Shown here: positions 22,467 to 58,270 of the stretch, one piece after another
Layout: every line of letters begins with the position of its first letter
How positions within the stretch are numbered: the stretch's first letter is position 1
Source: a bacterium
GTDB taxonomy: Bacteria; Omnitrophota; Gorgyraeia; Zapsychrales; Zapsychraceae
Assembly (NCBI GenBank): GCA_030429765.1
Contig: JAUIER010000001.1
Location: forward strand, 129,302 to 193,301
Reading direction: 5' to 3'
DNA length: 64,000 nucleotides
Program-made: the position numbers and the translations under genes
Notes under the pieces: model-generated
Seen by the model: only the letters and a program-made list of their open reading frames with translations
The model's database searches: none
What the model was told of the DNA's origin: nothing

Positions 22467-22769
22467 TTGCGTACACAAGACAAACTATTCCGGATAAGGC
22501 TCAGAAACTTTGTATTTACGATGATTTTGTTCAGCAGTATTTTTTTATTTCCCGTGTATATGACCTACGCGCGTATGGTGTGCACGACATACAACGGCAC
22601 CCGAACATGCGAATCACAGGACAACCGAACATTGAAGTTTAAAATGCTCAAGTGTATGGACGAGGGCTATTCCCGTTCTGAATGTATTGAACGGGCCAAG
22701 TCGGAGGCCTTTGAGTTGTCCAAAAAACTTGAAGAGGTTGTCACGATTACCTTCGTTGAAGAAGAATAA
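22467..22769 (+). CDS. small hypothetical secreted/membrane protein (TTG start)
   Basis: GGAGAAG Shine-Dalgarno 6 nt upstream of TTG; hydrophobic N-terminus, 6 Cys. Confidence 0.3.
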   Translation: MRTQDKLFRIRLRNFVFTMILFSSIFLFPVYMTYARMVCTTYNGTRTCESQDNRTLKFKMLKCMDEGYSRSECIERAKSEAFELSKKLEEVVTITFVEEE

Positions 22770-22846: not shown

Positions 22847-23674
22847 ATGCGGACCGATGGGGATATAATAGGGATCATGAGAAGATTAGGATTTTTTTTA
22901 TTTTGTTTGTGTGTCGCGATGCCGGTCACGGCCGAGACTACCACCGAGCGCGAAGCATTTCTCAAGCATGATCACGTGCTATGGTTTGATGGGTTGGACG
23001 ACGTCGTCACCGTTGGTAAATTTAAACCTATTTATGAGAACTCGGTTGAGTTATGGGTCCGGCCGGAGATCGAAAAATCCGGATCTTTATTTGCAAATGG
23101 CGGGGGGCCAAGAGCGGTTTGTGGGTCCGGGGTTCATTTTGCCGTCGGAGGGAAAAAAAGTTGTTATGATGTAAATCCGGATAAGTGCGGTACGGATAAC
23201 AAGGTCTGCTATTTTGGTAATTTAGCGGGCGAATGGGTGCATATTGCGGGAACCTACAACGGGTACACGTCCAGTATTTATGTGAACGGCGAATTCGTAA
23301 ATGCTGTCGAGGGAGTTAAGTTTGACACCCGCGATTGGTTAACGATAGGAAATTTGCGCTTCTACAACGGACACAATCATCCCTTTGGCGGTCAAATACT
23401 GGAAATTCGTGTATGGGATTTCGCATTACCGGCGGAACGTCTGAAAAAAGATATGTACAAACGACCCGATCCGAAAAGTGATGGGCTGGTGGCCTATTGG
23501 CGATTTGATCAAGGGGAAGGTCAGACGATTCTGAATCAAGTGAATAACAAGTACGCCGCTGTTTTGGGTATGACCGCCGATCAGGAATTTATCGATCCGA
23601 CCTGGATCAAGGTCACAGATCCTGCTGTCGAGCAATCCCAATTTAATGCCGATAGCCAATACCTGGAGTATTGA
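22847..23674 (+). CDS. secreted LamG / concanavalin A-like lectin domain protein
   Basis: signal peptide; LamG-3-like pattern (WVHIAGTYNG...SIYVNGEFV...LTIGN, W-rich beta-sandwich). Confidence 0.55.
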   Translation: MRTDGDIIGIMRRLGFFLFCLCVAMPVTAETTTEREAFLKHDHVLWFDGLDDVVTVGKFKPIYENSVELWVRPEIEKSGSLFANGGGPRAVCGSGVHFAVGGKKSCYDVNPDKCGTDNKVCYFGNLAGEWVHIAGTYNGYTSSIYVNGEFVNAVEGVKFDTRDWLTIGNLRFYNGHNHPFGGQILEIRVWDFALPAERLKKDMYKRPDPKSDGLVAYWRFDQGEGQTILNQVNNKYAAVLGMTADQEFIDPTWIKVTDPAVEQSQFNADSQYLEY

Positions 23675-24666: not shown

Positions 24667-24841
24667 GAGTCCATTCAAAAATCTTGAGTCTTTATTGTAT
24701 TGCCCTGTAATCAATGCTAAGCTGTCATCAACTGCATTAAATTTCAGGCGCGTTTATCAATACTTGTGCACATCCGTGTTCCGACTGACTTGCGATAAGT
24801 CCTAGATCCAATCGAATTCTCTACCGAAATGGGAGGAAGTT

Positions 24842-27280
24842 ATGAAGAAATTATTGATGGCCATGTTGATTGTCGCCGTGAGTTCGACGACTGTCCTGGC
24901 TTCCAGTCACCGGGAGGCTCCGGAAATAACCAAGAGACCTCAGATTGACGGAACAGATTTTTATATGTTTCGCAGCTATGAGCCCGGTCGCGACAACTAC
25001 ATCACATTAATCGCGAACTATAATCCGCTGCAGGATCCCTACGGCGGTCCAAACTATTTTCCGCTGGATGAAGAGGCCGTATATGACATTCACATCAGCA
25101 ATGATGGCGATGCCAAGGAGGACATCACCTTCAGGTTTCGCTTTGATCAGGAATTCAAGAACATCGGATTGGATGTCGGTGACGGATCCGGCGCAATCAA
25201 CGTTCCAATTCCGCTGATGAACGCGGGAATCATCGGTCCGGATAATGAAAGCGCGCTGAATGTGGTTCGACAATACCAAGTCCAATATATCGAAGGCGAT
25301 TCGACGCGCGGCATTCACTACGAAGTCCGCCGAAGCAGTCAATTGCTGAAGAACGCGTTTGATCACGATACCGTGTTCAAGATGCCGTTCGATAATATCG
25401 GGAATAAATCAATTCCAGATTATGAAACTTACGCCAATTCTTTCATTCATGACGTGGAGATTCCGGAGTGCGGTATGCCCGGGCGCGTATTTGTTGGGCA
25501 ACGCAAGGAATCCTTCGCTGTCAATCTAGGCGAAATCTTTGATTTGGTTAATGTGTCCAATCCGTTAGGCGCAACGGATGCTGAAGAATCAGATACGGCG
25601 GACAAGAACATTACAACCATCGCGCTGGAAGTTCCCATCGCCTGTTTAACGCAGGACAGCGGTGAAGTCATCGCGGGATGGACCACGGCGAGCAAGCAGA
25701 AGATCCGGACGTTCCGGACATTGCCCCGCGATCTCGGGCTAGACCATGAATTGGGACCGTTGGTTCAGGTGTCCCGTTTGGGAAATCCGCTGGTCAATGA
25801 AGTCGTGATCGGGTTGCCGGATAAAGACAAGTTTAACGCCAGTCATCCGACGGAGGATGATCAGTTTGCCTACTATGTCACGCACCCGACGTTGCCGGAA
25901 CTGCTGGAAATTTTATTCGGGGATGCCGGTGTGCAGGCGCCTAATTTTTTCCCACGGGCTGATTTGGTTCAGATCTTTCTAACCGGAGTCTCCGGATTAA
26001 ATCAGGACGGCTCTTACGCCGAGATTATGCGATTGAATACAACCATTCCGCCGGTAGCGAAATCACAGCAGAATAGCCTGGGCGTGCTTGGCGGTGATAA
26101 TGCGGGATATCCCAATGGTCGACGACCTGGAGATGATGTTGTAGATATTTCGCTCCGGGCTGTGATGGGGGTGCTGTTGGATCCGATGGTGGCCCCGTCA
26201 AGCCAATTACCGTTTACGGACGGGACGGCTCAGTCGGCGGAGATGTTTGACGATACATTTCCGTACCTGCTGGCACCGATACCGGGATCGCCCAATGACA
26301 CGCCGCAGGCTGGAGGGCAGCAGGCGCAAAGTCCGGTTCAAGAGGAGGGCAATCAATCCGACGCCCCGTCGGCTCCAATCGTTGATGACGTCGAGGACGA
26401 TCTGATTGAGGATGAACAATCCGACGATGAATTAGTCGAAGAAGATTCCGCGATCGAGGAAGAAGATGCGGAAGACAATTCGGCTGACGATACATCGGAA
26501 GCCACCGAGGAAGAGTCTGAAGGTTCTGAGCAAAATTCAGAGGAAGACGAGGAATCAGAGGGTACATCCGATGAAGATGTCCTGCTGAGCGATGATGCAG
26601 AGGAATCGGTGGACGAGGAAGACGTGACGGAGGAGTCATCGGAAGATCAAGCGGAGGAAACGGATTCTGAAGACGTCACGGACGAATCGGATGGGATGAC
26701 TGCCCCGACGCAAGAGGATGAGCCTGTTGAGGGTGGCGACGATCAACCCGATTCTATCCTGGTTTCAGATGATTCGGAAGAATTAGAGGAATCTGAAGAG
26801 GAAATTAACCCGGTTCAAGGAGAGGAAGATGCTTCAAATGATGATGACGGTTCATTCGATTCTGGAGCGGCGGATCAGCCTGATTTGGAGTTGGATGACG
26901 AAGAAGTCACCGAAGAATCAAATGAAGAAGGTCTAATCGATGAACAGTCCGATGAAGAGCAGGCCGAATCCGGTGAAGAATCCTCAGATGACGAAAATCA
27001 AGCAGGATCGGATGATGAATCCATCGAGTTAGAGTCGGAAAGCGAAGAAGATCTGTCTGAAGGCGAGGAACTCGAGCCGACAGATGAAGTCCTGGATAGC
27101 GGAAACACCGAGCCGGTGCAGCCATCGTCGGGTTCCGTATTGGTCTCCGACGATAACAGTGAATCTGAGGAAGAGCAAATGGAATCAGATGAGCCGCTGG
27201 ATACGGGTTCTCCTGAAGGCGAGGACGATGTCTCGGTGCCTGGATCGATTCTTGTTCCAGATGCTCCATTCGATGAATAA
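24842..27280 (+). CDS. DUF4331-family secreted protein fused to a roughly 330-aa poly-acidic C-terminal tail
   Basis: signal peptide then SSHREAPEITKRPQIDGTDFYMF, the characteristic DUF4331 N-terminus; C-terminal third is almost only D/E/S/G/T. Confidence 0.6.
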   Translation: MKKLLMAMLIVAVSSTTVLASSHREAPEITKRPQIDGTDFYMFRSYEPGRDNYITLIANYNPLQDPYGGPNYFPLDEEAVYDIHISNDGDAKEDITFRFRFDQEFKNIGLDVGDGSGAINVPIPLMNAGIIGPDNESALNVVRQYQVQYIEGDSTRGIHYEVRRSSQLLKNAFDHDTVFKMPFDNIGNKSIPDYETYANSFIHDVEIPECGMPGRVFVGQRKESFAVNLGEIFDLVNVSNPLGATDAEESDTADKNITTIALEVPIACLTQDSGEVIAGWTTASKQKIRTFRTLPRDLGLDHELGPLVQVSRLGNPLVNEVVIGLPDKDKFNASHPTEDDQFAYYVTHPTLPELLEILFGDAGVQAPNFFPRADLVQIFLTGVSGLNQDGSYAEIMRLNTTIPPVAKSQQNSLGVLGGDNAGYPNGRRPGDDVVDISLRAVMGVLLDPMVAPSSQLPFTDGTAQSAEMFDDTFPYLLAPIPGSPNDTPQAGGQQAQSPVQEEGNQSDAPSAPIVDDVEDDLIEDEQSDDELVEEDSAIEEEDAEDNSADDTSEATEEESEGSEQNSEEDEESEGTSDEDVLLSDDAEESVDEEDVTEESSEDQAEETDSEDVTDESDGMTAPTQEDEPVEGGDDQPDSILVSDDSEELEESEEEINPVQGEEDASNDDDGSFDSGAADQPDLELDDEEVTEESNEEGLIDEQSDEEQAESGEESSDDENQAGSDDESIELESESEEDLSEGEELEPTDEVLDSGNTEPVQPSSGSVLVSDDNSESEEEQMESDEPLDTGSPEGEDDVSVPGSILVPDAPFDE
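26294..27277 (+). repeat. low-complexity coding region: degenerate GAA/GAT/GAC/GAG-rich tract encoding the D/E/S-rich tail
   Basis: continuous runs such as EESEGSEQNSEEDEESEGTSDEDVLLSDDAEESVDEEDVTEESSEDQAEETDSEDVTDESDG. Confidence 0.7.
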
Positions 27281-27306
27281 TCAGTCTTAAGCTGTACAAT
27301 TTGAAC

Positions 27307-27341
27307 GGCAGACGGATACGCGTATCTGTCTGCCGTTTTTT
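27307..27341 (+). terminator. Rho-independent terminator after the DUF4331 gene
   Basis: GGCAGACGGATACG/CGTATCTGTCTGCC stem followed by GTTTTTT. Confidence 0.5.
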
Positions 27342-27346
27342 CGTTG

Positions 27347-28150
27347 ATGGCCATGTATAAGTTTTTATCTCAATTTCCGATTTTATGTCTGGTCTTGACC
27401 TGGACGACCGCGGCGCAGGCACATGATTTTTGGGTTCAACCCGAGTCTTATCATCCGGCCCAGACGTCACGTCTCAAGGTTACAGCGTATGTGGGAGAAT
27501 CTTTTCGGGGAGAAGCCCTGGCCCGGGATCCATCCCATATTGATGCATTCCGTCTGCATTGTGCTGATCATACGTCCGATATCGTCGGCTTGGACGGACA
27601 GGTTCCCACCGGATACGTCGCATTATCGCAGCCAGGGCTGTGCGCTCTTCAATATGTAAGCCGTCCGGTCTATCATGAGATGTCCTACTCACAGTTCGTG
27701 CGCTATCTCGACGAAGTTAATCAATTGGATCTGCTCGATACAGACAGTTTTGTCGTCGAGGATCAAACCGTCAGTGAAATTTTTATTCGTTGCGCCAAGT
27801 CTATCATCCATGTGGGTGAGGTAAGCGGCCCACAGGACCGGCCTGTTGAGGTCGGGATGCCTCTGGAATTGACGTGGGTGGCTCCGCCGGAAACGACGCA
27901 ATCCATGTCCGGTTATCGGGTTCAATTAAAGTATCAAAACACGCCCCTGGCGGGGATAATGGTCAAAGCGAGGGGGCGGTCGAACCCTGAGGAAGTCTTG
28001 CAGAGTCAAACGGACAAGGATGGTTTGGCTGTGTTTGAATTGGGCTCTTCGGATGAATGGATTTTTACAGCGGTGTACATCACACCGTCGAGCGATTATC
28101 AAATCAGCGATTGGATTAGCTATTGGGCGTCGCTCACGCTAAAAAATTGA
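27347..28150 (+). CDS. periplasmic DUF4198-like protein
   Basis: signal peptide ending AAQA followed by HDFWVQP, which I recall as the typical DUF4198 N-terminus; first ORF-track codon is TTG, ATG at 27347 used. Confidence 0.45.
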   Translation: MAMYKFLSQFPILCLVLTWTTAAQAHDFWVQPESYHPAQTSRLKVTAYVGESFRGEALARDPSHIDAFRLHCADHTSDIVGLDGQVPTGYVALSQPGLCALQYVSRPVYHEMSYSQFVRYLDEVNQLDLLDTDSFVVEDQTVSEIFIRCAKSIIHVGEVSGPQDRPVEVGMPLELTWVAPPETTQSMSGYRVQLKYQNTPLAGIMVKARGRSNPEEVLQSQTDKDGLAVFELGSSDEWIFTAVYITPSSDYQISDWISYWASLTLKN

Positions 28151-28347: not shown

Positions 28348-28651
28348 GCTGAACCGTAGATACAAAACTAAAGGGTCCAGCAGCGAGCTGGATAGCCAGT
28401 TGCCTCTTGAGCAGCATCAGCAGATGCCTGTTCCACTTATTGATGGGGCAGGTTTTTTTGTGCCTGCCGATTCAATTCAATATCTTTTCTGGAGTGATTC
28501 AACTCAAAATTCAAGGGGAAAACAGCACGTGACGTGTTGTTGCAGGGTGTTCAGGGAGTTTTTTCAATTTTGCGATCAAGGGGAACCCGTCGTTGTGCAG
28601 GACTGTCGGGGAGTGAAAATTTAGCGTACTACGACCAAATAGGAGAGTCAG

Positions 28652-31600
28652 ATGAAAAAGCTTATTCTTGGATTATGCCTCATGTTCTGTGCAATCCCTA
28701 TCAATGTCAGCGCCGCTGAAGTTCGGGTGAACTTTGGTCCGGCCAATTCAACAAGTCCCCAGGATTATATCCTCGATGACGGAACCGCCTACACGGTCGA
28801 ACGCGGATATGGATGGGATGGAGAGGTGTTTGTCGAAGAATGGGTCGTCAATGCGGATCCCCGTCTCAACACGATGGCGTGGGAATGGTCATGGGAAAGT
28901 TCGACGTGGATGTATGATCTTCCCAATGGAAACTACAAGGTTTCGCTTGAAGCGGGTAATTCAAATTTTACACACGGTCCCCACACCATCGAAGTCGAGG
29001 GGGTAAAAGTCATCGATGGGCAGGGCGGTCCGCCGAATCAGTTTTTCAAAGTGACGGAACATCCGGTCACAATTACCGACGGACAGCTCAACATAAAGAT
29101 TGGACCGTCAGGAGGGCACTCGGCGATCAACTACGTGATCATCGAAGATGCGGTGGGTGGAGATCCGGTAAATCAGGCGCCTTCGGTTGAAGCGGGCGCG
29201 GATCAAACTATCACCTTACCGGGGATGGTCGTCTTGACGGCAGAGGTTAGTGATGATGGATTGCCTTCGAATCAACTGATATCTGAATGGAAGCAGATCA
29301 GCGGTCCGGCGGGAGCTACCATCAATAACGCCCAGCAAACTCGGACCAGCGTCGATTTTGTCCAGGCGGGAACATATGTTTTTGAGATTGTGGTCAGTGA
29401 TGGTGAATTGAGCGCAGCGGACAGAGTATCGGTTGTGGTGAATGAGCTGGGGTCGTTTTCGGATGTATACATAAATTTTCAACCGGCCAATGATGACGTT
29501 CCATCCGGCTATGTCAAAGATGATGGTTCCGCCTATTCAGTATCGAGAGGATATGGATGGATGGGAGAGGTGCATGTGGAAACCTGGCCGAACAATGCTG
29601 ATTCGCGTTTGAATTCTATGGCATGGGAATGGTCCTGGGAGTCGTCTACCTGGAATTATGATCTTCCCAATGGTAATTATTTAATCGCCTTACAGTCGGG
29701 AAATTCAAACTTTACCCATGGTCCACACAAAATTGCTGTGGAGGGTGAGCTGGTGATTAATGGGCAAGGTGGCGCGCCGAATACGTTCGTTCTGGTTGAA
29801 AATCATCCCGTCACCGTCGCCGATGGACAATTGAATATCAAGCTAGGTCCTTCGGGCGGTAACAGCACGATTAACTACGTCATTATCAAAGCGGCTAATG
29901 GTTCCGGACAGGTGAATCAAATGCCGGTTGTTGACGCCGGGGCGGATCAGCAGATCATGATGGATACCGCTGCACAGCTGGATGGGGCGGTGAGTGATGA
30001 CGGATTACCGTTGGTTCCGGGTAATGTCGAAATTTCATGGAATCAAATGAGCGGTCCGGGAACGGCCATGTTCGAGGACGTGCGCGTGGAAGATCCCCGT
30101 GTGACTTTTACCAAGGCCGGTGAATATCATTTACAGCTGGTGGCCAGTGATGGTGAACTATCGGCCAGCGATGAGGTTATGGTGAAGGTGACAGATGGTG
30201 TGCCGGATCCTGTCGATGATATACGTGTCAATTTTCAACCGGCTACAAGTCACGTTCCCGTGGGTTATCTGGTCGATGATGGAAGTGCATATGATAACGC
30301 CCGTGGTTATGGCTGGCTGGGAGATGTCCGGGCCGAAGAGTGGCCCAATAACACAGATCAGCGTCTGAATACCATGGTGTGGGAGTGGTCATGGGAAACG
30401 TCAACGTGGGTCATGGATCTGCCCAACGGGGAGTACATGATTAGTCTCGAGGCGGGTAATACGAACTTTTCACACGGTCCGCACGTGATCGAAGTTGAAG
30501 GTCAGAAGGTGGTGGACGGATTTGCCTCATCGGCCAACAATTTTGCAAAGGTGGTTAATCATCCGGTAACGGTCACCGATGGAAAGTTGCATGTCAAGTT
30601 GGGGCCGTCCGGTGGAAATAGTACGATCAACTACATTATCATCAGCCAATCAGGTATCACGCCGACAAATGAGCCGCCAGTCGTATCGGCCGGTACAGAT
30701 CAGAATATTGTGTTGCCCGATTCGGCGACATTAACAGCGCAGGTGTCGGATGATGGATTGCCGTCCCCGAGTCAATTGAGTACGATGTGGTCATTCCAAA
30801 GTGGACCTGCCCCGGTGACCATTGAAAGCGAGCAAAGTCTTCAAACGCAGGTGAATTTCACAGCAGGCGGGACATACATATTCAGGATGACGGCTAGCGA
30901 CGGCGTCTTGTCGATGACCGACGATGTCACCGTGATGGTTGGTGATGATCCGGTGAACAATTCAGTGGGATTAGTTGCACATTGGCCGATGGATGAATCC
31001 GGCGGGAATATAATCGTTGACCGAATGGGAAGCGGATCCGACGGGATGTTGATCAATATGGAAGACGGTGATTTCATGCCCGGACAATTACGTAATGGTC
31101 TTGAGTTTGACGGCGTCGATGAATATGCCAATATCGGTGCCACGCCCGGGATTGTCATCAGCAATGAAATCACAGTATCGGCCTGGGTTCGAAGTTACTC
31201 GGATGGCTATGGCGTGATTATCAGTCGTCACATGTCGGGTGATCACGGATGGATGCTGTCGCGAACACCGAACAATGACAGCTTTGAGTGGAGAATATCA
31301 ACGGATGGTAATAATTGGTTCGGCGGAACCACTTCAGACAATAGTTTCGAAACCAATCAATGGTATCACGTGTCAGCCTCTTACGATGGCGATGTGATGC
31401 GGGTTTTTATCGACGGTGTTGAAGACACCGGTGGGATGTTTCCATTCAATGTTTCCGGTGTGATGCACAAATCAGACGCGCCCCTGCAGATTGCGCGTGA
31501 TGAATTCAATGGAGATAACTTCAGCTTCCACGGGATGCTGGATGATATTCGGATGTACGATATCGCCTTGTCGGCAACGGAAGCGCAGAATCTCTATAAT

Positions 31601-33397
31601 AGTGTTCGTCCCGTCGTCGATGATGGCAGCGATCAGGAAGTGACGTTTGATCTCAACGGTATCCCCAACATATGGGATCAGAATCTCTTGCATGATGATG
31701 CGTTCGCGGCGGTGCGGATGGAACCATCGCAGGTCGGCAACACCTGTTTTGTCGACGGGACGTTGGGTATTAATCCCGACGACCGTCTGGCCAGTGGAAA
31801 TATTCGGCAAATCGAGGAGATGAAGTACACACTCAATGAAGTGCCGCGTCTGGCCAATGGCGAATATGATATTGCGCAGATTAAGTTCTACAAGACCTTA
31901 AAAGCGGCTACAAACCGCTACAGCGGTTGTAACGCGATGGGGGACCGCGTGCTGGTCCGCAAGGGTGTTTATCATGAGCATTTGTTTCTCGTTGAGTTTC
32001 AAAACTACGGCGGGGGTGATGTGGCGGATGGATACGGCATCGGTCCTATGGATGAACCGTTTGTGATTGACGCCAGTGATACCACTAAGATGGAAGGTCC
32101 ATGGGAGGCGTATGATCAGGAGATATATCGTGCCAAATGGGGGCTGAATGTCTTTCCTAGTTGGGTCGTAATGGATGGCAATTTCCGATCATCGCGTCCG
32201 GAGTATACGCTCAATGCCATTGTTGGTAAAGACGGTAGGTTCTTTTATGATACATCGACGGACTATCTGTACGTGAATACCAGCGGTGTGCATCCGGATG
32301 ACAGGAGTCTAATCGTATCCCGTCATGATGACTCCAATGGATTAATGGCGATCATTAGTCCGGTCGAAAATATCGAGTTGACGGGATTTATCCTGCGGGG
32401 GGCTCCAAGTACCGGGTTGTGGCAAACCGGAGATGGAGCGCATGTGCATCATGTCAAGTTTGAATTCTGTGGACGATCATGCGCCAATTTGACGGATGCC
32501 CAAAATTCCTTGATTGAAAAAAACATCATTACCGCGCCAGTAATGCAGTGGTGGCCGCGCGGTCGAACCAGTGTGCGCGGATTATGGCCATCGGGAACAC
32601 AGGTTGGTAATGGCAGCACGTTCCGATATAATCTCGTTTCCAATAGTGGAGGTGAGGGTGTTGGAACGAATGGGCATGATATTTTGGTATTCCAGAACGT
32701 CATTCGTGATTCTTGGTCGGTAAACCTGTATCCGTCAGGTAGTCGAAATGTTACAATCGAAGAGAATCTAATCTACAACACCAAAGTTGACTATGCCGAT
32801 GGGACGGATGCTGATCGTGTGCCGGAGGGGGCTGATGAGCCTTACATGCGTCGACGGATGCGTCCTATTGGTATTCTTATGGGATCAGAGGAAGATACCG
32901 ATCCACTCTCCATTAACTACGTCCTGCGAAAAAACGTGTTAGTCAATAACAGGTACGCCATAAGTTTATACGCCCTGGCCCAAGGCAGCGGCTGGAAGCA
33001 GATTACGATGGAGAACAATGTGATCATCCTGCCGGCGTATGATCCGGCTGAAATATTCGACACGTTCTATGGCCTGCACGCGCATGGCACGGTCTACGAC
33101 TTCGAAAATTACTTTACTGACAATATTGTGATCAATCCTGCGGAGACCGGACGGATTATCGGTCGAATTTGGGATTCGGTCATCACTAATGAAGCCTTCA
33201 CGATCTCGGGCAATATGTGGTACACGTCGGCCGGGACGCGGCAGTTCGAATACCGTCAAACCCTGTATGATTATCAGCAATGGTTATCCGTTACGCCATA
33301 CGGAGCGGGAAGTTCTCACGGAACCATTCCGGCGGAAACTCCGTGGGAGATCAACGGGCAGAAGATTCCGGTGCCTGATTATATCCCGGTAAAATAA
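28652..33397 (+). CDS. giant secreted multidomain carbohydrate-active protein: 3x candidate carbohydrate-binding module (malectin-like), Ig-like (PKD/Big-type) spacers, LamG domain, C-terminal right-handed beta-helix
   Basis: signal peptide; three ~145-aa repeats (VNFQPA..P.GY..DDG.AY...RGYGW.GEV..E.W.NAD.RLN.M.WEWSWE.STW.YDLPNG.Y...LE.GN.NF.HGPH.I.VEG...DG); SDDGLP Ig-like spacers; LamG pattern WYHVSASYDG...VFIDG; C-terminal repetitive N/G/V-rich beta-helix region. Confidence 0.7.
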   Translation: MKKLILGLCLMFCAIPINVSAAEVRVNFGPANSTSPQDYILDDGTAYTVERGYGWDGEVFVEEWVVNADPRLNTMAWEWSWESSTWMYDLPNGNYKVSLEAGNSNFTHGPHTIEVEGVKVIDGQGGPPNQFFKVTEHPVTITDGQLNIKIGPSGGHSAINYVIIEDAVGGDPVNQAPSVEAGADQTITLPGMVVLTAEVSDDGLPSNQLISEWKQISGPAGATINNAQQTRTSVDFVQAGTYVFEIVVSDGELSAADRVSVVVNELGSFSDVYINFQPANDDVPSGYVKDDGSAYSVSRGYGWMGEVHVETWPNNADSRLNSMAWEWSWESSTWNYDLPNGNYLIALQSGNSNFTHGPHKIAVEGELVINGQGGAPNTFVLVENHPVTVADGQLNIKLGPSGGNSTINYVIIKAANGSGQVNQMPVVDAGADQQIMMDTAAQLDGAVSDDGLPLVPGNVEISWNQMSGPGTAMFEDVRVEDPRVTFTKAGEYHLQLVASDGELSASDEVMVKVTDGVPDPVDDIRVNFQPATSHVPVGYLVDDGSAYDNARGYGWLGDVRAEEWPNNTDQRLNTMVWEWSWETSTWVMDLPNGEYMISLEAGNTNFSHGPHVIEVEGQKVVDGFASSANNFAKVVNHPVTVTDGKLHVKLGPSGGNSTINYIIISQSGITPTNEPPVVSAGTDQNIVLPDSATLTAQVSDDGLPSPSQLSTMWSFQSGPAPVTIESEQSLQTQVNFTAGGTYIFRMTASDGVLSMTDDVTVMVGDDPVNNSVGLVAHWPMDESGGNIIVDRMGSGSDGMLINMEDGDFMPGQLRNGLEFDGVDEYANIGATPGIVISNEITVSAWVRSYSDGYGVIISRHMSGDHGWMLSRTPNNDSFEWRISTDGNNWFGGTTSDNSFETNQWYHVSASYDGDVMRVFIDGVEDTGGMFPFNVSGVMHKSDAPLQIARDEFNGDNFSFHGMLDDIRMYDIALSATEAQNLYNSVRPVVDDGSDQEVTFDLNGIPNIWDQNLLHDDAFAAVRMEPSQVGNTCFVDGTLGINPDDRLASGNIRQIEEMKYTLNEVPRLANGEYDIAQIKFYKTLKAATNRYSGCNAMGDRVLVRKGVYHEHLFLVEFQNYGGGDVADGYGIGPMDEPFVIDASDTTKMEGPWEAYDQEIYRAKWGLNVFPSWVVMDGNFRSSRPEYTLNAIVGKDGRFFYDTSTDYLYVNTSGVHPDDRSLIVSRHDDSNGLMAIISPVENIELTGFILRGAPSTGLWQTGDGAHVHHVKFEFCGRSCANLTDAQNSLIEKNIITAPVMQWWPRGRTSVRGLWPSGTQVGNGSTFRYNLVSNSGGEGVGTNGHDILVFQNVIRDSWSVNLYPSGSRNVTIEENLIYNTKVDYADGTDADRVPEGADEPYMRRRMRPIGILMGSEEDTDPLSINYVLRKNVLVNNRYAISLYALAQGSGWKQITMENNVIILPAYDPAEIFDTFYGLHAHGTVYDFENYFTDNIVINPAETGRIIGRIWDSVITNEAFTISGNMWYTSAGTRQFEYRQTLYDYQQWLSVTPYGAGSSHGTIPAETPWEINGQKIPVPDYIPVK
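28718..30650 (+). repeat. three tandem diverged copies (about 60% aa identity) of the ~430-nt malectin-like domain module (approx. 28718-29153, 29467-29890, 30222-30650)
   Basis: protein-level repeat read directly from the translation. Confidence 0.7.
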
Positions 33398-36181: not shown

Positions 36182-38095
36182 ATGGGGAAAAAATTCATTG
36201 TCAGAGTGCAAAATCAGTTTATAGTTTGTCTATGCCTTTCGCTGTTTTTTGTCAGCCGTCCCGCAGATGTTCTCGCCGAAAGTAATCCCGCCTCGGCCAA
36301 TTCAATAAAAAAAATACAACTGGATCCAATCATCGTCACAGCCCGACGTGTTTTCTCGGAAAGCGACAGCATTGCCGAAGATGTGGTGATCTATACAGCG
36401 GACGATCTTCACAAGATCGGGGCCCGCGATCTCGGCCAGGCGCTGCAGCATATTCCCGGCGTGGATGTCAGCGTGCGAACACAATTCGGTCAGGCCACCT
36501 CCGTATCGATCCAGGGTTCCGCCTCGCGTCAGGTGTTGGTCATGGTCGACGGAGTTCCTTTCAATACGCAGCTATCCGGTCAGGCCAATCCGACTCGCAT
36601 TCCCGTCGAGCACATCAAACAAATCGAGGTAATCAAAGGCGCGTCCTCCAGTGTCTGGGGATCCAGCCTCGGCGGAGTGATTAATGTCATCACCAAAAAT
36701 ACCGGTGAGACGGAAATTCCTCAGGGGACATTCACTACAAGTTTTGCCGAGTATCGAACGTTCAAGAACAGTTTAAGTCTGAGCGGAAAGATCGGTCAGC
36801 TCGGATATTTTGTATCCGGCAGCTATCTGGATACCGACGGGCCGATGTCTCATACAGATGTCGAAGAGCTCAAGACATACGCCAAGGTTTCCTATCCGCT
36901 GGGGGATTTAGCGGAGGTGATTGCGTCTTTTGGGTACAGCGGGGCGGATGTCCGTTTCGGTGTCAATCCCAACAACCGGATCATCGGACAGCCATACATT
37001 TCGCGTTACGGACAGATGACATTTCAAAGTGAAGATGAGTATGTGCGTTTTAGGATGTCGTTTAAATACAACGATCAGGACGTCATTACAGACATTTACA
37101 ACGCGTCGACCGGCGCGAATGTATCTTCAACCGTTAGCCGAAATCTGTATAAGGGGTTGAGTTTGAGTTCTGAGTTTGATCTGTTCGATGACGACTTACT
37201 TGTCGTCGGCGCGGATTTTGAATGGCAGCGACTCAAGTCCAATAATTTTCTATCTGAGTCCAAGAGTGTTCATGCTCAGGCGCCGTATATCAATTACCGG
37301 TTGCGTTGGGGGCGCTGGGATTTTATTCCGGGCGTACGGTATGATCACAATCAGCAGTTCGGCGAGCAGACAAGTCCGAGTATCGGGATTGTTCACCGGT
37401 TTAATGACCGTCGGAATACCCGGATCCGGCTGAAGGCGTCGCGCGGGTTTAACGCGCCGCCGCTTTTATGGATCTACAATAATGATCCGGGATTATTTGT
37501 CGGTCCCAATCCGGATTTGAAGCCTGAGCGTTCCGACTCTTATCAGATCGGCGTGACATCCGAGCTGACCGAAAATTTGGATTTGGAATTTAATGTCTTT
37601 CGTGCCGATATCCGGGACGCGATTGATCTGATATTTGATTCAACTAATTTTGTATTTGTTCAGCAAAATTTTGAAAAATTTCGTCGTCAAGGCGCGGAAC
37701 TGCTGGTGGATTATTCTATCAGTCCTGAACTATCCGTATATGCCAGCGGGGCATTTACAGACGTGGAAAACCGCGTGACAGGCAAGACGGTTCGCAGTTC
37801 ATCCGCGGCCCGTCAGCGGTACACGTTCGGTATCCGCTACCTGAACCGACGTCATCTGGGAGTCTATTTGTCCGGTTACTACAAACGATGGAGCTCCTCA
37901 GCAAGTTCACAGCCGAATGATCGTAAACCAATATTTGATCTAAAGCTCACCAAGGAATTCAAAGAGATCAAGGATAAAGTCGATCTAGAAGCGTTTCTCA
38001 TCATTCACAATCTCACCAACAGCAAGTATTGGTCTGTCGTGGATTTTCCATTGCCCAGACGCTATTTTGAGGGGGGAATCTCTCTTAGTTTCTAG
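36182..38095 (+). CDS. TonB-dependent outer-membrane receptor
   Basis: plug-domain signatures (IVTARR, TAxDLxKIGARDLGQAL, IEVIKGASSSVWGSSLGGVINVITK), beta-barrel, C-terminal F. Confidence 0.75.
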   Translation: MGKKFIVRVQNQFIVCLCLSLFFVSRPADVLAESNPASANSIKKIQLDPIIVTARRVFSESDSIAEDVVIYTADDLHKIGARDLGQALQHIPGVDVSVRTQFGQATSVSIQGSASRQVLVMVDGVPFNTQLSGQANPTRIPVEHIKQIEVIKGASSSVWGSSLGGVINVITKNTGETEIPQGTFTTSFAEYRTFKNSLSLSGKIGQLGYFVSGSYLDTDGPMSHTDVEELKTYAKVSYPLGDLAEVIASFGYSGADVRFGVNPNNRIIGQPYISRYGQMTFQSEDEYVRFRMSFKYNDQDVITDIYNASTGANVSSTVSRNLYKGLSLSSEFDLFDDDLLVVGADFEWQRLKSNNFLSESKSVHAQAPYINYRLRWGRWDFIPGVRYDHNQQFGEQTSPSIGIVHRFNDRRNTRIRLKASRGFNAPPLLWIYNNDPGLFVGPNPDLKPERSDSYQIGVTSELTENLDLEFNVFRADIRDAIDLIFDSTNFVFVQQNFEKFRRQGAELLVDYSISPELSVYASGAFTDVENRVTGKTVRSSSAARQRYTFGIRYLNRRHLGVYLSGYYKRWSSSASSQPNDRKPIFDLKLTKEFKEIKDKVDLEAFLIIHNLTNSKYWSVVDFPLPRRYFEGGISLSF

Positions 38096-38267
38096 ATACT
38101 CAGATTTTTAATTTGAGTATTTTGAATGACTTTGAACGCTTTTACATTAGTAGGTAGAAAAAAGTCAGTTATTGACCCATTGAAACCATTACAAAAAGAA
38201 ACAAACAAGGCTAGAGTATGATTAAGCTAGTCAGATCAGCCGGTTAACACACCGAAAATATAAATCG

Positions 38268-39920
38268 ATGTCAAAAGCAGGAATCAGAGTAATGATTATT
38301 TGCAGCCTCCTAGTCATGACAGGTTTGGATCCGGAACACGTCGAGGCCACGGATCGAAGACACTTGGCGACGGCAGAATCCTACCATAAGTCAGGGATGG
38401 GCCAGCCTGTGCCCGGTGGGACTTTAGCATGGGGGACGGTGAATGCCCCATCGATTATCAATCCTGTATTGACTGTCACCAGCGTGTCTTCCTCCTTGCT
38501 GGAGTTGCTTTTTGATTCACTGATAAGACTGGATTATCAGGGAAAGTTGGTTCCGGGCTTGGCCAAGTCGTGGACGGTCTCACCGGACAAGTTGGAGTAT
38601 ACCTTTTATTTGCACGAAAATATCTTTTTTCATGACGGACATCCTCTGACCGCGGAGGATGTCAAATTCACCTTTGAGTTAGTGGAAGATCCGGCGGTGA
38701 GATCTCCGAAGAAGTCCAAGCAGGATGATATCGTTTCCTGGACGATTATAGATCCCTACACATTCAAAATCCGGCTGAGTAAGCCGGCGGAAACAGTTCT
38801 CTATAAATTTACCATCGAAATTTTGCCGAAACATATTTTTGAAACGGAGGATATTCGGCTGTCTCGCTACAACTACGCGCCAATAGGTTCGGGGCCTTAC
38901 AAGTTTAACTCCTGGGATCACGACACCAATCAGATCGAACTGGATGCAAATGAACAATATTTTGAAGGACGGCCTAATATCGACAAAATCATTGTCAAAA
39001 CCTATCAGGACAACACTCAGCTATGGACGGCCTTGATGCGAAATGATGTCGATTTGGTGCTATATCTTAATCCGAATGATTTTGAAATTCTGCGTAAGGA
39101 TGGGGCCTTTAAAACCTATGAAATTGCGTGGGAAATGTATCTCGGAATTGCTTATAACCTGAATGATCCCATCTTAAGTGATCAAAGGATCCGCCGGGCT
39201 ATTGCCAAGAGTGTGGATCGGCGTGCGATTTTAGACCAGGTGGGGATGCCGGGACGAATTGCCAATGGTCCGTTCCATCCGTTGTCCATTGGTTTTAATC
39301 GGGATGTCAAGCCGATAGAATATGATCCAGTTGAGGCGATAAGAAGTCTGGAAGAATTGGGCTGGTCGTCCATGGATTATGACGGGATCAGAATGCGGGG
39401 CGATGAAAAGTTTGTCTTACGTTTGCTTGTTGACGCCAGTGATCGAAATTATATGCGGGTAGCTCAAGTCCTTCGTCAACAGTTGTCAGCGGTGGGCATT
39501 CGTCTGGAGGTTGTCCTCTATGAAGATGAGTCTGAGCTGACGGAAGATTTTCTCTCGATGCATCGACCGCAGGCCTGGCTGCGATTCTTTGACGGAACGG
39601 GCCACGACTACAGCGGTAATGGTCCATTGATGAACTGGTTCGTCGATGAGGGGTCCCTGAATCGTTTGTGGGCCTATTCAGATGACCGAGTGCAGGAAAT
39701 TTATGACCAGGGACGGAACACGACGGACATGATCGTCCGTGACAGATTATACAAGCAAGTACATCAGATTATCTATGACGGTCAGCCGGTGCTCTTTATG
39801 TATTTCCCGACGAGTTATCACGCGGTGTCGAGCCGCATCCACAATACGGACTATTTATTCAATATAAATATGCCTGTAAATGTTATAAAAGATTGGCATA
39901 TTCCGGTAAATTCAAATTAA
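38268..39920 (+). CDS. extracellular solute-binding protein, family 5 (Opp/Dpp/Nik-type peptide/nickel binding)
   Basis: 550 aa, signal peptide, family-5 SBP pattern (GTLAWGTVNAPSIINPVL...LIRLDYQGKLVPGLAKSW); no cognate permease/ATPase genes adjacent. Confidence 0.7.
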   Translation: MSKAGIRVMIICSLLVMTGLDPEHVEATDRRHLATAESYHKSGMGQPVPGGTLAWGTVNAPSIINPVLTVTSVSSSLLELLFDSLIRLDYQGKLVPGLAKSWTVSPDKLEYTFYLHENIFFHDGHPLTAEDVKFTFELVEDPAVRSPKKSKQDDIVSWTIIDPYTFKIRLSKPAETVLYKFTIEILPKHIFETEDIRLSRYNYAPIGSGPYKFNSWDHDTNQIELDANEQYFEGRPNIDKIIVKTYQDNTQLWTALMRNDVDLVLYLNPNDFEILRKDGAFKTYEIAWEMYLGIAYNLNDPILSDQRIRRAIAKSVDRRAILDQVGMPGRIANGPFHPLSIGFNRDVKPIEYDPVEAIRSLEELGWSSMDYDGIRMRGDEKFVLRLLVDASDRNYMRVAQVLRQQLSAVGIRLEVVLYEDESELTEDFLSMHRPQAWLRFFDGTGHDYSGNGPLMNWFVDEGSLNRLWAYSDDRVQEIYDQGRNTTDMIVRDRLYKQVHQIIYDGQPVLFMYFPTSYHAVSSRIHNTDYLFNINMPVNVIKDWHIPVNSN

Positions 39921-39944
39921 TTGGCGAAGGGGGTGAATAAATCA

Positions 39945-40067
39945 ATGGGAGAAATCAAAATTATCAATAAAGGCACCGATGATGTTAATCAAATGGCCGC
40001 CTTAGGCTGCTGTTGGCCGCCGGGCACCGAAACGATGGTGCGACCGAACGAAGAGGAAGCCAAGTAG
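39945..40067 (+). CDS. candidate RiPP precursor peptide (40 aa) MGEIKIINKGTDDVNQMAALGCCWPPGTETMVRPNEEEAK
   Basis: Not in the ORF track (below length cutoff). Strong RBS AAGGGGGTG 9 nt upstream of ATG. Sits 34 nt upstream of the radical-SAM/SPASM gene. Charged leader-like N-half and a Cys-Cys-Trp-Pro-Pro core. Confidence 0.45.
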   Translation: MGEIKIINKGTDDVNQMAALGCCWPPGTETMVRPNEEEAK

Positions 40068-40101
40068 TATTCCATAGATATGCTGGGGCACGATTCTTTT
40101 A

Positions 40102-41550
40102 GTGATCCCGCATAGGCCGACCTCAAAAGAATTTTGCTCCAGCATGTTTACAAATTCTTTATCAAGGAAAGATATGCAATTTTCCAGTCATACTATTATT
40201 GTTGAACAGTATCCTCAGCCCGACGAGCACCTGCTGTACAACACACGGACCCAGGCCCTGGTCAAGATACCGGCCGCTGTTAAGACGGCGATTGAGACAT
40301 ATGACTCGTCGGAAGTCAGCGCGGTATCGCGCTATCAAGAAGATCTGGATGTTCTTTACCGGATGGGTCTGATCGTAAACAACTTGGAGGAAGATCTACA
40401 GAGAATCAAAGATCACATGCGGCAACTGAAATCTTCCGTGGATCGCAAATCATTTCCGGTGACACTGCTGACAACATACGCCTGCAACTTAAAGTGCAGT
40501 TATTGCTTTGAAGAGTCATCGAGGACCAACGAAAAAATGCCGCCGGATACTCAGCAGCAGGCCATGACATGGCTCAAGAGCAAGCTCATCGAACAGCGTT
40601 ATCAGAAACTATATTTGACGTTTTATGGTGGTGAACCATTGGCTAACAAGCCGGCGATTAAAACAATAGCCACTCATATGCAGCAATGGTGCCGCGACAG
40701 GGGAATCGAGTTTAATTTCATGCTGCAGACCAACGGATATCTGATGACGCCTGATTTGATCCGTCAATATCTCAAGCTGGGACTTAATCAAGTCCGAATT
40801 TCCGTTGATGGAGTGGGGCAGGAGCATGATAAGTACCGACCGCTTCGAAAAGGTGGTGGATCATTTGATGTCATCATGAAGAATATCCTTGATTGCTGCG
40901 ACCTGGTCCTCATTGGGATTTCCGTCAGCTATGAAAAAGGCCAGGTTGAAAAGATAGATCGCCTGTTCGATTATCTTGATGATCTAGGTATATTACACAA
41001 GCTCGGGCGGTTTTTATTTTCGCCGATCCACGCGACACTTGGTCCGGAAGGCCATCCGGAGTACATTCAGAATTCCAGCTGTATGTGCAATTATGACGAT
41101 CAGATGCTGGTCGAATCGCAGCGGAAAATAAATCGTTATATGCAGCAACGCGGTTTGCCGATGCGAAGCGGTATGTCCACATCTGTTTGCCCGGTAACGC
41201 GTGATGAAGCAGGAATAACCATCGACCAGAAGGGATATCTTTATAAGTGTAATTCCATGCTTGGTCACAAAGAATTTTCGACAGGACACGTATCGGAAGC
41301 CGAGTACAACGAGCGTCATCAGGAATTCTTGGGGCTGGATGTCTGGAAGCAGTGTCCGGTCGATTGCACGTACATGCCGATGTGCAGCGGCGGCTGCCGG
41401 CTGTCTTCATTTTTGAATAATCAGCATTTTAATCGGCCCACATGCCATAAGCCTTATTTAAATCGTATGGCGAGGGAATTTATCATTAAAGACTATGAAA
41501 GGATTATGACTCAACAAAAGGAGATTCAGCAGGAGCAGATAGTCAGATAA
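40102..41550 (+). CDS. radical SAM / SPASM-domain peptide-modifying enzyme with N-terminal RRE-like extension
   Basis: CNLKCSYCFEE (CX3CX2C); C-terminal auxiliary-cluster cysteines CPVDCTYMPMCSGGCR (SPASM); about 115-aa N-terminal region before the rSAM core. Confidence 0.8.
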   Translation: MIPHRPTSKEFCSSMFTNSLSRKDMQFSSHTIIVEQYPQPDEHLLYNTRTQALVKIPAAVKTAIETYDSSEVSAVSRYQEDLDVLYRMGLIVNNLEEDLQRIKDHMRQLKSSVDRKSFPVTLLTTYACNLKCSYCFEESSRTNEKMPPDTQQQAMTWLKSKLIEQRYQKLYLTFYGGEPLANKPAIKTIATHMQQWCRDRGIEFNFMLQTNGYLMTPDLIRQYLKLGLNQVRISVDGVGQEHDKYRPLRKGGGSFDVIMKNILDCCDLVLIGISVSYEKGQVEKIDRLFDYLDDLGILHKLGRFLFSPIHATLGPEGHPEYIQNSSCMCNYDDQMLVESQRKINRYMQQRGLPMRSGMSTSVCPVTRDEAGITIDQKGYLYKCNSMLGHKEFSTGHVSEAEYNERHQEFLGLDVWKQCPVDCTYMPMCSGGCRLSSFLNNQHFNRPTCHKPYLNRMAREFIIKDYERIMTQQKEIQQEQIVR

Positions 41551-41565
41551 TCGTCAGGTTGACGT

Positions 41566-43296
41566 ATGTCCTTTACCCGGATCCTGAGGCCCTTTAGCGC
41601 CCGGATACAATGCATTATATTGTGCATTTTTTTCTCAAACGCGATGGTCATGGTGATGCCCTGGGGTATCAAAATGATCGTCGACGGTCTGCAGGCGCGC
41701 GGAGGGATTGAGGTTATCAATTGGGTCGTTGGGGTCATACTCGCGGCTACTATTATCAGGGGTATTCTGAACTATCTGAAAAATGTTTTCAGCCATAGCG
41801 TAGGGGAGCAATTGATATGTCGTATGCGTGAAGAGATTTATGATCACGTCCATCAATTGCCGCTGGCGGAGCTGCAACGGATCACACCGTCGAGGATCCT
41901 GACCCGTCTGACGGGGGACCTGGACAATCTGCGACGATTTTTGTTCTGTGATATTGTCGAGTTTATTTACGGGGCGTTGAGTATCCTCTTGATATTTTCA
42001 ATCCTGATGATTATCAACGCACGTCTGACGTTGGCGGCCTTGCTGTTCTATCCGGTTTTTCTGGTCATGTATTTCCGAAGGATGCCGCTATTAAAACAGC
42101 ATTATCGTGGAATCAGAGAGCATTGGGGAGAAATTTCGTCCCGGATTAACGAAGTCATTCAGGGGATGCCGACCGTCAGAAGTTGCGGGGCCTATCGGCA
42201 CGAAATGGCACGCTTATCGGAACGGCACGGTAATCTCATCGAAGATTCGATGCAGGCGCATCGTCTGAACATTCGGCTGGGCGGACTGGCCGAATTTGCG
42301 TCCACCTTGGGAATTCTGACGGTGCTTTGGCTAGGCTCACGGGATGTACTGGCCCAACGGATGACGGTGGGAGAATTGATTGCGTTCTATTCGTATATCG
42401 GGATGCTGTTCGCGCCGTTGATTCGCATGGTGATGATTAACACGTCATATCAGGAAGCATCGGCGGCGTTGGATCGAATCAATCACATTTTGGAATGTGA
42501 TCGACTGGCTGACGCGGCCAAGCCTCTGGAAGATGATTACCGGTCGGGGGGACGTGTTGTCTTTGACAGTGTCTCATTCGGGTATGATCCGCCGGTGAAT
42601 GTGGTTGAGAATCTGAATTTTTGTATTCAGCCGGGGGAAAATGTGGGTATCGTCGGCGTCAGCGGTGCGGGAAAGAGTACGCTGATCAATTTGCTGCTCG
42701 GGTTTTACCGGCCGCAATCAGGAAAAATCCTGCTGGATGGTCGTACCATCGAAGACATGGGAGCGGCGACGTATCGTCAGCAAATGGCTGTGGTTTTGCA
42801 GGACTCGTATATGTTCAGCGGAACCATCCGTGAGAATATCGCGTACGGACGTCCTGAGGCTGATTTTTTGGAAATCCAGATGGTGGCCGAGATCGCGCAA
42901 ATCGATGACTACATTCGGTCGTTACCTCAGGGGTACGAAACGAAAGTCGGTGAACGCGGCCTGAATCTGTCAGGAGGACAGCGGCAGCGGATGGCTATCG
43001 CGCGGGCATTGCTGCGTAACCCAACGGTGTTGATTCTCGATGAGGCCACGTCCGCGTTGGATGCCATGACCGAAAATCGGGTGCAGCAGGCTCTCAGCCG
43101 CTATATGCGCGGCAAGACCATGATCACGGTGGCGCACCGTTATTCGACGATCATAGAGACGGATCGGATTATGGTGATTGATCGGGGACAAATCGTAGAG
43201 AATGGTACACACGATCAGTTGTTCGGTCTCAAGGGAATATATTACAAGATATACTCGGAACAGTTTAAGGATAACGATATACCAGTACCTTCATAA
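41566..43296 (+). CDS. ABC transporter, fused permease/ATP-binding exporter (no peptidase domain)
   Basis: 6 TM + Walker A GVSGAGKST, signature LSGGQRQR, Walker B LILDEATS. Confidence 0.85.
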   Translation: MSFTRILRPFSARIQCIILCIFFSNAMVMVMPWGIKMIVDGLQARGGIEVINWVVGVILAATIIRGILNYLKNVFSHSVGEQLICRMREEIYDHVHQLPLAELQRITPSRILTRLTGDLDNLRRFLFCDIVEFIYGALSILLIFSILMIINARLTLAALLFYPVFLVMYFRRMPLLKQHYRGIREHWGEISSRINEVIQGMPTVRSCGAYRHEMARLSERHGNLIEDSMQAHRLNIRLGGLAEFASTLGILTVLWLGSRDVLAQRMTVGELIAFYSYIGMLFAPLIRMVMINTSYQEASAALDRINHILECDRLADAAKPLEDDYRSGGRVVFDSVSFGYDPPVNVVENLNFCIQPGENVGIVGVSGAGKSTLINLLLGFYRPQSGKILLDGRTIEDMGAATYRQQMAVVLQDSYMFSGTIRENIAYGRPEADFLEIQMVAEIAQIDDYIRSLPQGYETKVGERGLNLSGGQRQRMAIARALLRNPTVLILDEATSALDAMTENRVQQALSRYMRGKTMITVAHRYSTIIETDRIMVIDRGQIVENGTHDQLFGLKGIYYKIYSEQFKDNDIPVPS

Positions 43297-58265: not shown

Positions 58266-58270
58266 TACGT

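Follow-up and report, generated by a model that had tools for sequence, protein, structure and literature searches.

A two-gene cassette was examined within a 64,000-nucleotide (nt) stretch of the genome of a bacterium of the phylum Omnitrophota (GenBank assembly GCA_030429765.1, contig JAUIER010000001.1, positions 129,302 to 193,301), which is referred to here in its entirety as the window. The first gene encodes a protein in which a DUF4331 domain is continued by a long polyacidic C-terminal tail, and the second encodes a DUF4198 protein; a terminator-like hairpin lies between them. The pair is a two-gene extracytoplasmic cassette, composed of a Sec-exported DUF4331 protein and a member of a family for which metal binding is experimental. 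What is new is the tailed architecture of a known but uncharacterised family, found in a conserved cassette with a metal-binding family that was characterised recently. The coordinates of all features are collected in Table 1.

The N-terminal part of the first protein had been recognised as DUF4331 in an earlier note on this DNA, and this identification was borne out by Pfam (PF14224), which matched residues 21-479 over the whole profile (1-421 of 421, E=2.9e-141, 472 bits against a cut-off of 27). A literature search for DUF4331, PF14224 or SSHREAP (the signature that opens the mature protein) returned no paper, function or structure for the family, its fold is without a solved structural counterpart, and NCBIfam holds no model for either the DUF4331 or the DUF4198 protein. 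The 4,963 representative DUF4331 matches span Acidobacteriota, Proteobacteria, Planctomycetota, Verrucomicrobiota, Cyanobacteria and others. Homologues were compared in three sets, namely the 120 closest proteins (452-605 amino acids, aa), 150 representatives of the 4,963 clusters (50% identity), and 80 loci from GTDB-representative genomes other than the window's own, among which the best DUF4331 match is 60% identical. The median length of the 270 homologous proteins is 490 aa, against 812 aa for the window protein. Typically, a DUF4331 protein is a lone domain of ~470-530 aa or that domain followed by a folded C-terminal module, and the window protein matches neither arrangement; it is a variant architecture of DUF4331 and still a member of the family. 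The identical 812-aa protein is on record in one NCBI contig and one Logan contig, the exact 267-aa DUF4198 product is also on record, and the window proteins that were checked are singletons or near-singletons at 90% identity.

The tail comprises 57 Asp, 82 Glu and 46 Ser among its 324 residues (Asp and Glu 43%; with Ser 57%) and is devoid of Lys, Arg, His, Cys, Trp and Tyr, giving a net charge of −139 (−140 when counted over residues 481-812). With the −33 of the domain, the whole mature protein comes near −173. The earlier note had described a poly-acidic tail of ~330 residues after ~480 aa, and the 324 residues with 139 Asp/Glu agree well with that description. Two of its details were somewhat too strong: the tail is indeed strongly acidic and Ser-rich, but it does not consist almost entirely of Asp, Glu, Ser, Gly and Thr, given that Val, Gln, Pro, Ala and Leu each account for ~5%, and a net charge of −150 or more slightly overstates the tail. 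The charge is spread evenly, with a longest acidic run of 5 residues and a longest non-acidic run of 12. The tail is predicted to be disordered, as it was modelled without secondary structure at a predicted local distance difference test (pLDDT) score of 30-39 and falls deep in the disordered region of a charge-hydropathy plot. Neither Pfam nor NCBIfam matches it, and recognised sorting signals (PEP-CTERM, the C-terminal domain [CTD] of the type IX secretion system [T9SS], LPXTG, lipobox) are absent from the sequence. Against this background, a short hydrophobic motif, [DS][VI]L[LV][SP]D[DA], is found in four copies at residues 580, 639, 766 and 803; two or more copies occurred in 0 of 20,000 residue shuffles, for a pattern that was defined after the sequence had been viewed. 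An acid-rich, halophile-like proteome was ruled out as the source of the composition, since the other window proteins have an ordinary isoelectric point (pI) and the 64 kb hold one acidic stretch.

The DNA of the tail has the properties of coding sequence. Its frame is open for 981 nt, whereas base shuffles gave a mean of 16.9 stops and none of 5000 was free of them; the other five frames of the region contain 4 to 37 stops each. Codon periodicity is evident (position 1 G 60%, position 2 A 51%, position 3 flat), and the use of Asp and Glu codons (GAA/GAG, GAT/GAC) matches that of the domain and of one neighbouring gene. Taken together, the open frame, the periodicity and the native Asp/Glu codons indicate a coding sequence kept by selection on composition and not recent slippage. 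Two long antisense open reading frames (ORFs), already flagged in the earlier note as by-products of GA-rich DNA, are both present and are explained by the purine-rich coding strand; the translation of the 141-aa one is rich in Pro, Arg and Leu, as the complement of GAN/GAR codons, and the Pfam-supported gene lies on the sense frame. The earlier note had also raised the possibility that the tail is an assembly artefact of a simple repeat. A simple repeat was ruled out by Tandem Repeats Finder, which found nothing in the tail even at a minimum score of 30, and by direct-repeat searches, which returned imperfect repeats of 15-29 nt and nothing longer. In addition, the window matches a Logan assembly of run ERR3428548 without a single difference along 15,820 bases, the whole gene included, on a contig that was seen in 2 samples.

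The point at which the tail was added is visible in the closest homologue (P0002, 485 aa, from the metagenome-assembled genome [MAG] GCA_975109715.1), which was found among 5.8 billion protein clusters. P0002 has the signal peptide, the SSHREAP start and the full domain at 65% identity, and its gene is likewise followed by a DUF4198 gene with a hairpin in between. It differs in ending at ...GSPNDTP, whereas the window protein runs on for 324 acidic residues. The C-terminus of P0002 reads ...FPYLRTPIAGSPNDTP-stop and the junction in the window protein reads ...GSPNDTPQAGGQQ..., that is, ...FPYLLAPIPGSPNDTP-QAGGQQAQSPVQEEG...; both proteins have ...GSPNDTP there, and the tail begins at the residue where P0002 stops. 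Given that P0002 ends exactly at the junction, the tail was appended precisely at the ancestral C-terminus or stop codon. A donor for the tail DNA was found neither in the window nor in related loci. A homology search with the tail alone (E<=0.001) returned nothing, not even the protein itself, and is uninformative on occurrence elsewhere.

A comparable long acidic tail is present in 0 of 269 other family members and at 0 of the 80 genome loci, in line with the earlier note's view that it is not a standard part of DUF4331 and with a lineage-specific extension. In the best 60-residue segment, 34 residues are acidic in the window protein and 21 in the next best family protein. Short acidic C-terminal stretches occur in P0252 (net −13) and in P0216, where one of net −24 precedes a beta-rich module. 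More generally, the C-terminal end of DUF4331 is a hotspot for additions, which elsewhere include CHRD, alpha-carbonic anhydrase, RTX Ca2+-binding repeats, SLH and a T9SS sorting domain/FlgD_ig; varied modules are carried by P0204, P0246 (RTX), P0258 (SLH), P0261 and P0238 (T9SS CTD/FlgD_ig), P0128 and P0059. Verrucomicrobial members have an extra C-terminal module of ~80 aa.

In the window protein (VLA|SSHREAPEITKRP) the SSHREAP signature directly follows the signal peptide, as it does in 203 of 270 family proteins and at 78 of the 80 genome loci. The residue at −1 is Ala in 190 of the 203 proteins (94%), with a small or aliphatic residue at −3, and 75 of the 78 loci are concordant; in the window protein the only cleavage site that fits the −3/−1 rule lies after Ala20 (Val at −3, Ala at −1). 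S21, S22, H23, R24, E25, A26 and P27 are invariant across 53 sequences, in which H23 is the sole invariant His of the DUF4331 domain. The amino-terminal Cu(II)- and Ni(II)-binding (ATCUN) site has the form NH2-X-X-His and is exemplified by serum albumin and histatin-5. Cleavage at AxA|SSHREAP would expose NH2-Ser-Ser-His, and an ATCUN-type Cu(II)/Ni(II) site is therefore predicted, by which DUF4331 itself may bind metal. The predicted end of the window protein has the elements of such a site (Ser-Ser-His with a free amine, a second residue other than Pro, and His at position 3), whereas the conserved stretch of the family (SSHREAPxI/VT..P) is longer than the site needs and may do more or something else. 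Residues 20-32 were modelled at low pLDDT, as expected of a flexible arm. An ATCUN-type motif is new for DUF4331, not having been described in the family before. Elsewhere in the domain, invariant positions are chiefly occupied by Asp, Asn and Gly of loops (DNDGD, PNGRRPGDDVVD), and these loops look like Ca2+ sites, by resemblance.

The downstream gene had been assigned to DUF4198 from an HDFW motif. The assignment holds (PF10670, E=2.8e-22, 80.3 bits against a cut-off of 34, profile 1-208 of 209), and the motif is present, although it marks the predicted mature N-terminus after AQA and not the start of the gene. The association of DUF4198 with metals, which the earlier note mentioned, is experimental in two studies from 2025 (PMC12537917, PMC12663993). 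IsDUF4198 (PDB 9GCB) binds Ni2+ with a dissociation constant (Kd) of 18 nM through its N-terminal His1 and His18 in a positively charged cleft, with malonate, a dicarboxylate, completing the coordination, and His is the first mature residue in 79% of the family (PMC12537917). Zcp of Neisseria gonorrhoeae (PDB 9MHI-9MHO) captures Zn in the periplasm as a dimer and can bind Cu, Co and Ni as well (PMC12663993).

A profile built from the window protein plus 16 DUF4331-linked DUF4198 proteins matched both solved three-layer beta-sandwich proteins, Zcp (9MHI, E=3e-15) and IsDUF4198 (9GCB, E=7.5e-9), so that similarity to these chains is seen at the level of sequence profiles; the alignment to Zcp reached only its C-terminal half (residues 139-269), which leaves the triad H29, H31 and H142 unplaced. 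The predicted mature His1, for a cleavage site placed by sequence, is invariant in 17 of 17 aligned partners and aligns with His1 of 9GCB. A second His takes two mutually exclusive forms among the DUF4331-linked partners: six have Gly-His at the equivalent of His18, and nine, together with the partner of P0002, have an AVHM sequence near the C-terminus. The window protein shares with IsDUF4198 and Zcp the PF10670 match and the His that follows the signal peptide, but it lacks the His18 ligand as well as the AVHM His of its nearest relatives, and its metal preference may consequently differ. The DUF4198 protein at locus L059 likewise has neither second His. Both cassette proteins are thus predicted to present a chelator made of the N-terminal amine and an imidazole; this arrangement is experimental for relatives of the DUF4198 protein, and we infer it for DUF4331.

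Linkage of the two families extends beyond the window. A DUF4198 homologue is present at 22 of the 80 genome loci, in ~16 of them directly downstream on the same strand (gaps of −3 to ~460 bp), and linkage is enriched in the closest relatives (15 of the 30 best loci vs 7 of the 50 others; Fisher p=7e-4). Downstream partners were assigned by Pfam scans of chosen downstream ORFs, as clustering of raw ORFs was spurious in GC-rich loci owing to alternative frames. At other loci the usual downstream partner is a tetratricopeptide repeat (TPR) protein of ~400 aa (at least 33 of 67 scanned), and DUF4331 genes elsewhere lie near extracytoplasmic function (ECF) sigma factors (40 loci), RskA-type or ChrR-cupin anti-sigma factors and TonB-dependent receptors. 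The SSH N-terminus together with the pairing with DUF4198, TonB-dependent receptors and ECF sigma systems points to metal acquisition or sensing. Some Bryobacterales have tandem DUF4331 genes, one of them fused to CHRD, upstream of a DUF4198 gene (loci L002, 9782-13270, and L061).

The hairpin between the two genes, which the earlier note had read as terminator-like, was recovered by a terminator scan. It spans 27303-27338 with a 16-bp stem (7 GC pairs), a 4-nt loop and a TTTTTT run, begins 22 nt after the end of the DUF4331 gene, and folds with a free energy (dG) of −31.7 kcal/mol (z −5.2; 0 of 200 shuffles as stable); as a GC-rich hairpin followed by a U-run, it is predicted to be an intrinsic (Rho-independent) terminator. 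At the P0002 locus (L082), where the DUF4198 gene lies 84 bp downstream (L082 7542-8351), the same intergenic place is occupied by a 16-bp hairpin with a U-run (dG −31.2, z −6.4) whose sequence is unlike that of the window. Given that the cassette and a hairpin are both present at that locus, the two genes were already paired, with a hairpin between them, before the tail was added. The window hairpin directly adjoins the start codon of DUF4198, a gene before which no Shine-Dalgarno sequence can be seen; this suggests lower or conditional expression of DUF4198. The minimum-energy fold lengthens the hairpin by an outer stem, in which 27291-27299 pair with the TTG/ATG start region of DUF4198 (27343-27351), possibly by chance. 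On the plus strand no sigma-70-like promoter, and upstream of the cassette no convincing operator palindrome, was found, and neither Rfam families nor tRNAs were detected across the 64-kb window.

Table 1. Features of the DUF4331-DUF4198 cassette, numbered from the first base of the window
Feature	Position	Strand	Basis
Gene for 812-aa DUF4331 protein with acidic tail	24842..27280 (stop included)	+	ORF list, Pfam PF14224
Shine-Dalgarno-like GGGAGG, 5 nt 5' of the ATG of the DUF4331 gene	24831..24836	+	sequence reading
Signal peptide, aa 1-20, MKKLLMAMLIVAVSSTTVLA, cleavage predicted after V-L-A	24842..24901	+	inferred from −3/−1 rule
Ser21-Ser22-His23, predicted mature N-terminus, ATCUN-type NH2-X-X-His, opens SSHREAP signature	24902..24910	+	conservation; metal binding predicted
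DUF4331 domain, aa 21-488, beta-sandwich core then helical region	24902..26305	+	
Polyacidic, predicted-disordered C-terminal tail, aa 489-812	26306..27277	+	composition, pLDDT, charge-hydropathy plot
Hydrophobic motif copy 1, VLLSD, aa 580-584	26579..26593	+	pattern count
Hydrophobic motif copy 2, ILVSD, aa 639-643	26756..26770	+	pattern count
Hydrophobic motif copy 3, VLVSD, aa 766-770	27137..27151	+	pattern count
Hydrophobic motif copy 4, ILVPD, aa 803-807, 5 residues from C-terminus	27248..27262	+	pattern count
Intercistronic terminator-like hairpin and T-run, abuts DUF4198 start codon	27303..27344	+	terminator scan, RNA fold
DUF4198 gene, 267 aa from ATG 27347 (ORF lister: TTG 27344)	27347..28150	+	Pfam PF10670
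His26 of DUF4198 precursor, predicted mature residue 1 (AQA|HDFW)	27422..27424	+	alignment
Terminator-like hairpin and T-run closing the two-gene unit	28426..28453	+	terminator scan
Antisense ORF, 141 aa, by-product of GA-rich coding strand, not a gene	26214..26639	−	ORF list
Antisense ORF, 187 aa, by-product, overlaps tail, hairpin and DUF4198 start	26907..27470	−	ORF list

Several known systems resemble the tail in part. Polyacidic Ca2+ buffers and biomineralisation proteins, such as calsequestrin, the Asp-rich shell proteins and the acidic magnetosome proteins, are very rich in Asp and Glu and poor in basic residues. The tail, with 43% Asp and Glu and neither Lys nor Arg, would be expected to offer many weak cation sites and to behave as a polyelectrolyte in the same way. 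The likeness to calsequestrin is one of composition only, without kinship of sequence or fold, as calsequestrin consists of folded thioredoxin-like domains whereas the tail is predicted to be disordered; unlike the biomineralisation proteins, the tail sits on a bacterial exported protein, in a window without mineralisation genes. A precedent for metal-binding tails is closer at hand in the "cluster 2" DUF4198 proteins, which have disordered His-rich C-terminal tails and a mean of ~284 residues vs ~270 in cluster 1 (PMC12663993). These are likewise disordered, ligand-rich C-terminal extensions of extracytoplasmic proteins in the same functional neighbourhood, but they are short, are made of His and belong to DUF4198, whereas the window tail has 324 residues dominated by Asp, Glu and Ser, no His, and a DUF4331 domain in front of it. 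The Anglerases Ang-1 and Ang-2, folded beta-sandwich domains with a His1 that are joined by a short linker to HupE/UreJ permeases (PMC12537917), offer a comparison of arrangement, being secreted proteins with N-terminal metal-chelating residues in which a flexible appended element fishes metal ions for a neighbouring acceptor; the element in the window differs in being a long disordered polyanion with no permease adjacent.

The tail is tentatively read as a polyanionic collector or buffer of cations attached to a metal-capture protein, an interpretation that we hold to be quite possible though somewhat short of an even chance. Its description as a metal buffer or mineral binder, as proposed in the earlier note, is plausible by analogy of composition. 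As a flexible polyanion with ~139 carboxylates, the tail would bind many divalent or trivalent cations weakly, with low affinity and high capacity, and may concentrate or buffer metal ions close to the high-affinity sites at the N-termini of DUF4331 and DUF4198. Metal could then be handed from the tail to these sites by ligand exchange, the tail acting as a cation-exchange "antenna" fused to a capture protein, and the hairpin would probably set unequal expression, with DUF4331 above DUF4198. Such an antenna is chemically and biologically plausible because a dicarboxylate sits at the Ni site of IsDUF4198 and disordered His-rich tails occur in DUF4198 (PMC12663993). A broader model is doubtful: DUF4331 proteins would be secreted ATCUN-type Cu(II)/Ni(II) chelators, with a fold unlike solved proteins, that act together with DUF4198 His1 proteins, and the Omnitrophota variant would add a novel type of bacterial extracytoplasmic device, a polyanionic, disordered "ion-exchange" tail of ~140 carboxylates that harvests or buffers metal cations.

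A number of observations weigh against a cation collector. The tail is present in one genome only, so there is no conservation to argue for functional selection. Carboxylates favour hard cations (Ca2+, Mg2+, Mn2+, Fe3+) and not the Ni, Cu or Zn of amine/His sites, so that a hand-over to Ni/Cu/Zn sites is not obviously favourable. The four hydrophobic motif copies suggest protein docking rather than plain ion exchange. The DUF4198 partner has neither second His (Glu-Ser at the equivalent of His18; Tyr, in AVYITP, at the AVHM position) and is itself acidic (pI 4.7, net −15), with no overall charge complementarity to the tail; electrostatic docking of the tail on this partner, which was also considered, is weakened by the same pI. 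A metal-responsive regulator, operator or riboswitch was not found near the cassette, and a terminator-like hairpin of such strength could keep the two genes from being expressed together.

Three other explanations were weighed. It is rather unlikely, if a serious competitor, that the tail lacks a specific function and arose through loss of the stop codon or a 3' insertion, followed by drift or growth of low-complexity acidic sequence, which would be tolerated because it is soluble and Sec-passable and would serve at most as an entropic bristle or solubility enhancer. Restriction to a single lineage, a closest relative that stops exactly at the junction and an intact, typical DUF4331 domain are all as this account would have it; shorter acidic stretches arise sporadically at the C-terminus within the family (P0216, P0252), and no homologue of the tail was detected, by a search that also missed the protein itself. 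What it explains poorly is the length and quality of the sequence: 324 open codons with Lys, Arg, His, Cys, Trp and Tyr excluded, mixed synonymous codons and no DNA repeats point to long-standing selection on composition and not to slippage, four copies of a specific motif have been kept, and an appendage of net −139 on an exported protein carries a non-negligible cost. The same single-lineage occurrence could also be expected if misassembly, a chimera or a frameshift had joined a DUF4331 gene to non-coding GA-rich DNA, and the Logan contig may share the read set of the MAG, in which case the two assemblies would perhaps not be independent at the level of reads. An artefact of this kind is nonetheless very improbable, given that two assemblers agree exactly over 15.8 kb with the Logan contig in 2 samples, that the tail holds no tandem repeat which an assembler could collapse or expand, that 981 nt are open where 17 stops would be expected, with codon periodicity and native codon usage, and that the gene has a normal end, followed after 22 nt by a terminator hairpin with a counterpart in the relative.

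The motif copies would find a place if the tail were an anchor. In that case the polyanion would be cation-bridged to the envelope (lipopolysaccharide, S-layer) or to positive minerals (Fe/Mn oxides, carbonates) and would place the DUF4331 domain at the surface, with the four [DS][VI]L[LV][SP]D motifs as short docking elements. Polyacidic sequences adsorb to oxides and carbonates, as in biomineralisation proteins. The same C-terminal position bears anchoring or sorting modules in other DUF4331 proteins (SLH in P0258, T9SS CTD/FlgD_ig in P0261 and P0238) and Ca2+-binding RTX repeats in P0246, and the motif itself is non-random, with 4 copies against one at most in 20,000 shuffles. A tether is nevertheless unlikely on the whole: the protein has no recognised sorting signal (PEP-CTERM, T9SS CTD, LPXTG, lipobox), a protein with only a Sec signal peptide would be expected in the periplasm of a diderm, beyond contact with minerals, and no partner for the motif was identified.

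Should the tail collect cations, it would represent a rare bacterial case of a polyelectrolyte appendage that is fused to a capture protein and serves the handling of metals outside the cytoplasm. Should it be neutral, the protein would be a clean example of a stop-codon-proximal low-complexity extension arising on an exported protein. The conserved N-terminus provides a testable Cu/Ni hypothesis for a widespread and wholly uncharacterised family.

The remainder of the window contains a variety of other genes. A 275-aa Laminin_G_3 protein is encoded at 22847-23674, and a secreted protein of 1581 aa at 28652-33397 combines three ~250-aa galactose-binding-like and PKD repeats with Laminin_G_3 and a right-handed beta-helix. 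A 100-aa ORF at 22467-22769 has a hydrophobic N-terminus and several Cys; its sub-threshold match to late nodulin (18 bits, cut-off 30) is probably meaningless, and the gene caller predicted just a 37-aa product there. On the plus strand, 36182-43296 carries four consecutive genes, for a TonB-dependent receptor, a solute-binding protein of family 5 (NikA/Opp family), a radical SAM protein and an ATP-binding cassette (ABC) exporter; genes for a dCache histidine kinase and an AraC-type response regulator come next, and the region could be an uptake or peptide-modification locus. A phosphate-regulon-like cluster at 57456-63625 encodes a PhoB-type regulator, a PnpS/PhoR-type kinase, a porin, PstS and PstC, and the kinase has named relatives that come almost entirely from Candidatus Omnitrophota (63-50% identity). 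On the strength of this one gene, the sole clue to the taxon in the sequence, the source is probably an Omnitrophota MAG that lacks near relatives among sequenced genomes. Nearly all long ORFs of 1-64000 lie on the plus strand, and the cumulative GC skew climbs steadily over 20-32 kb.

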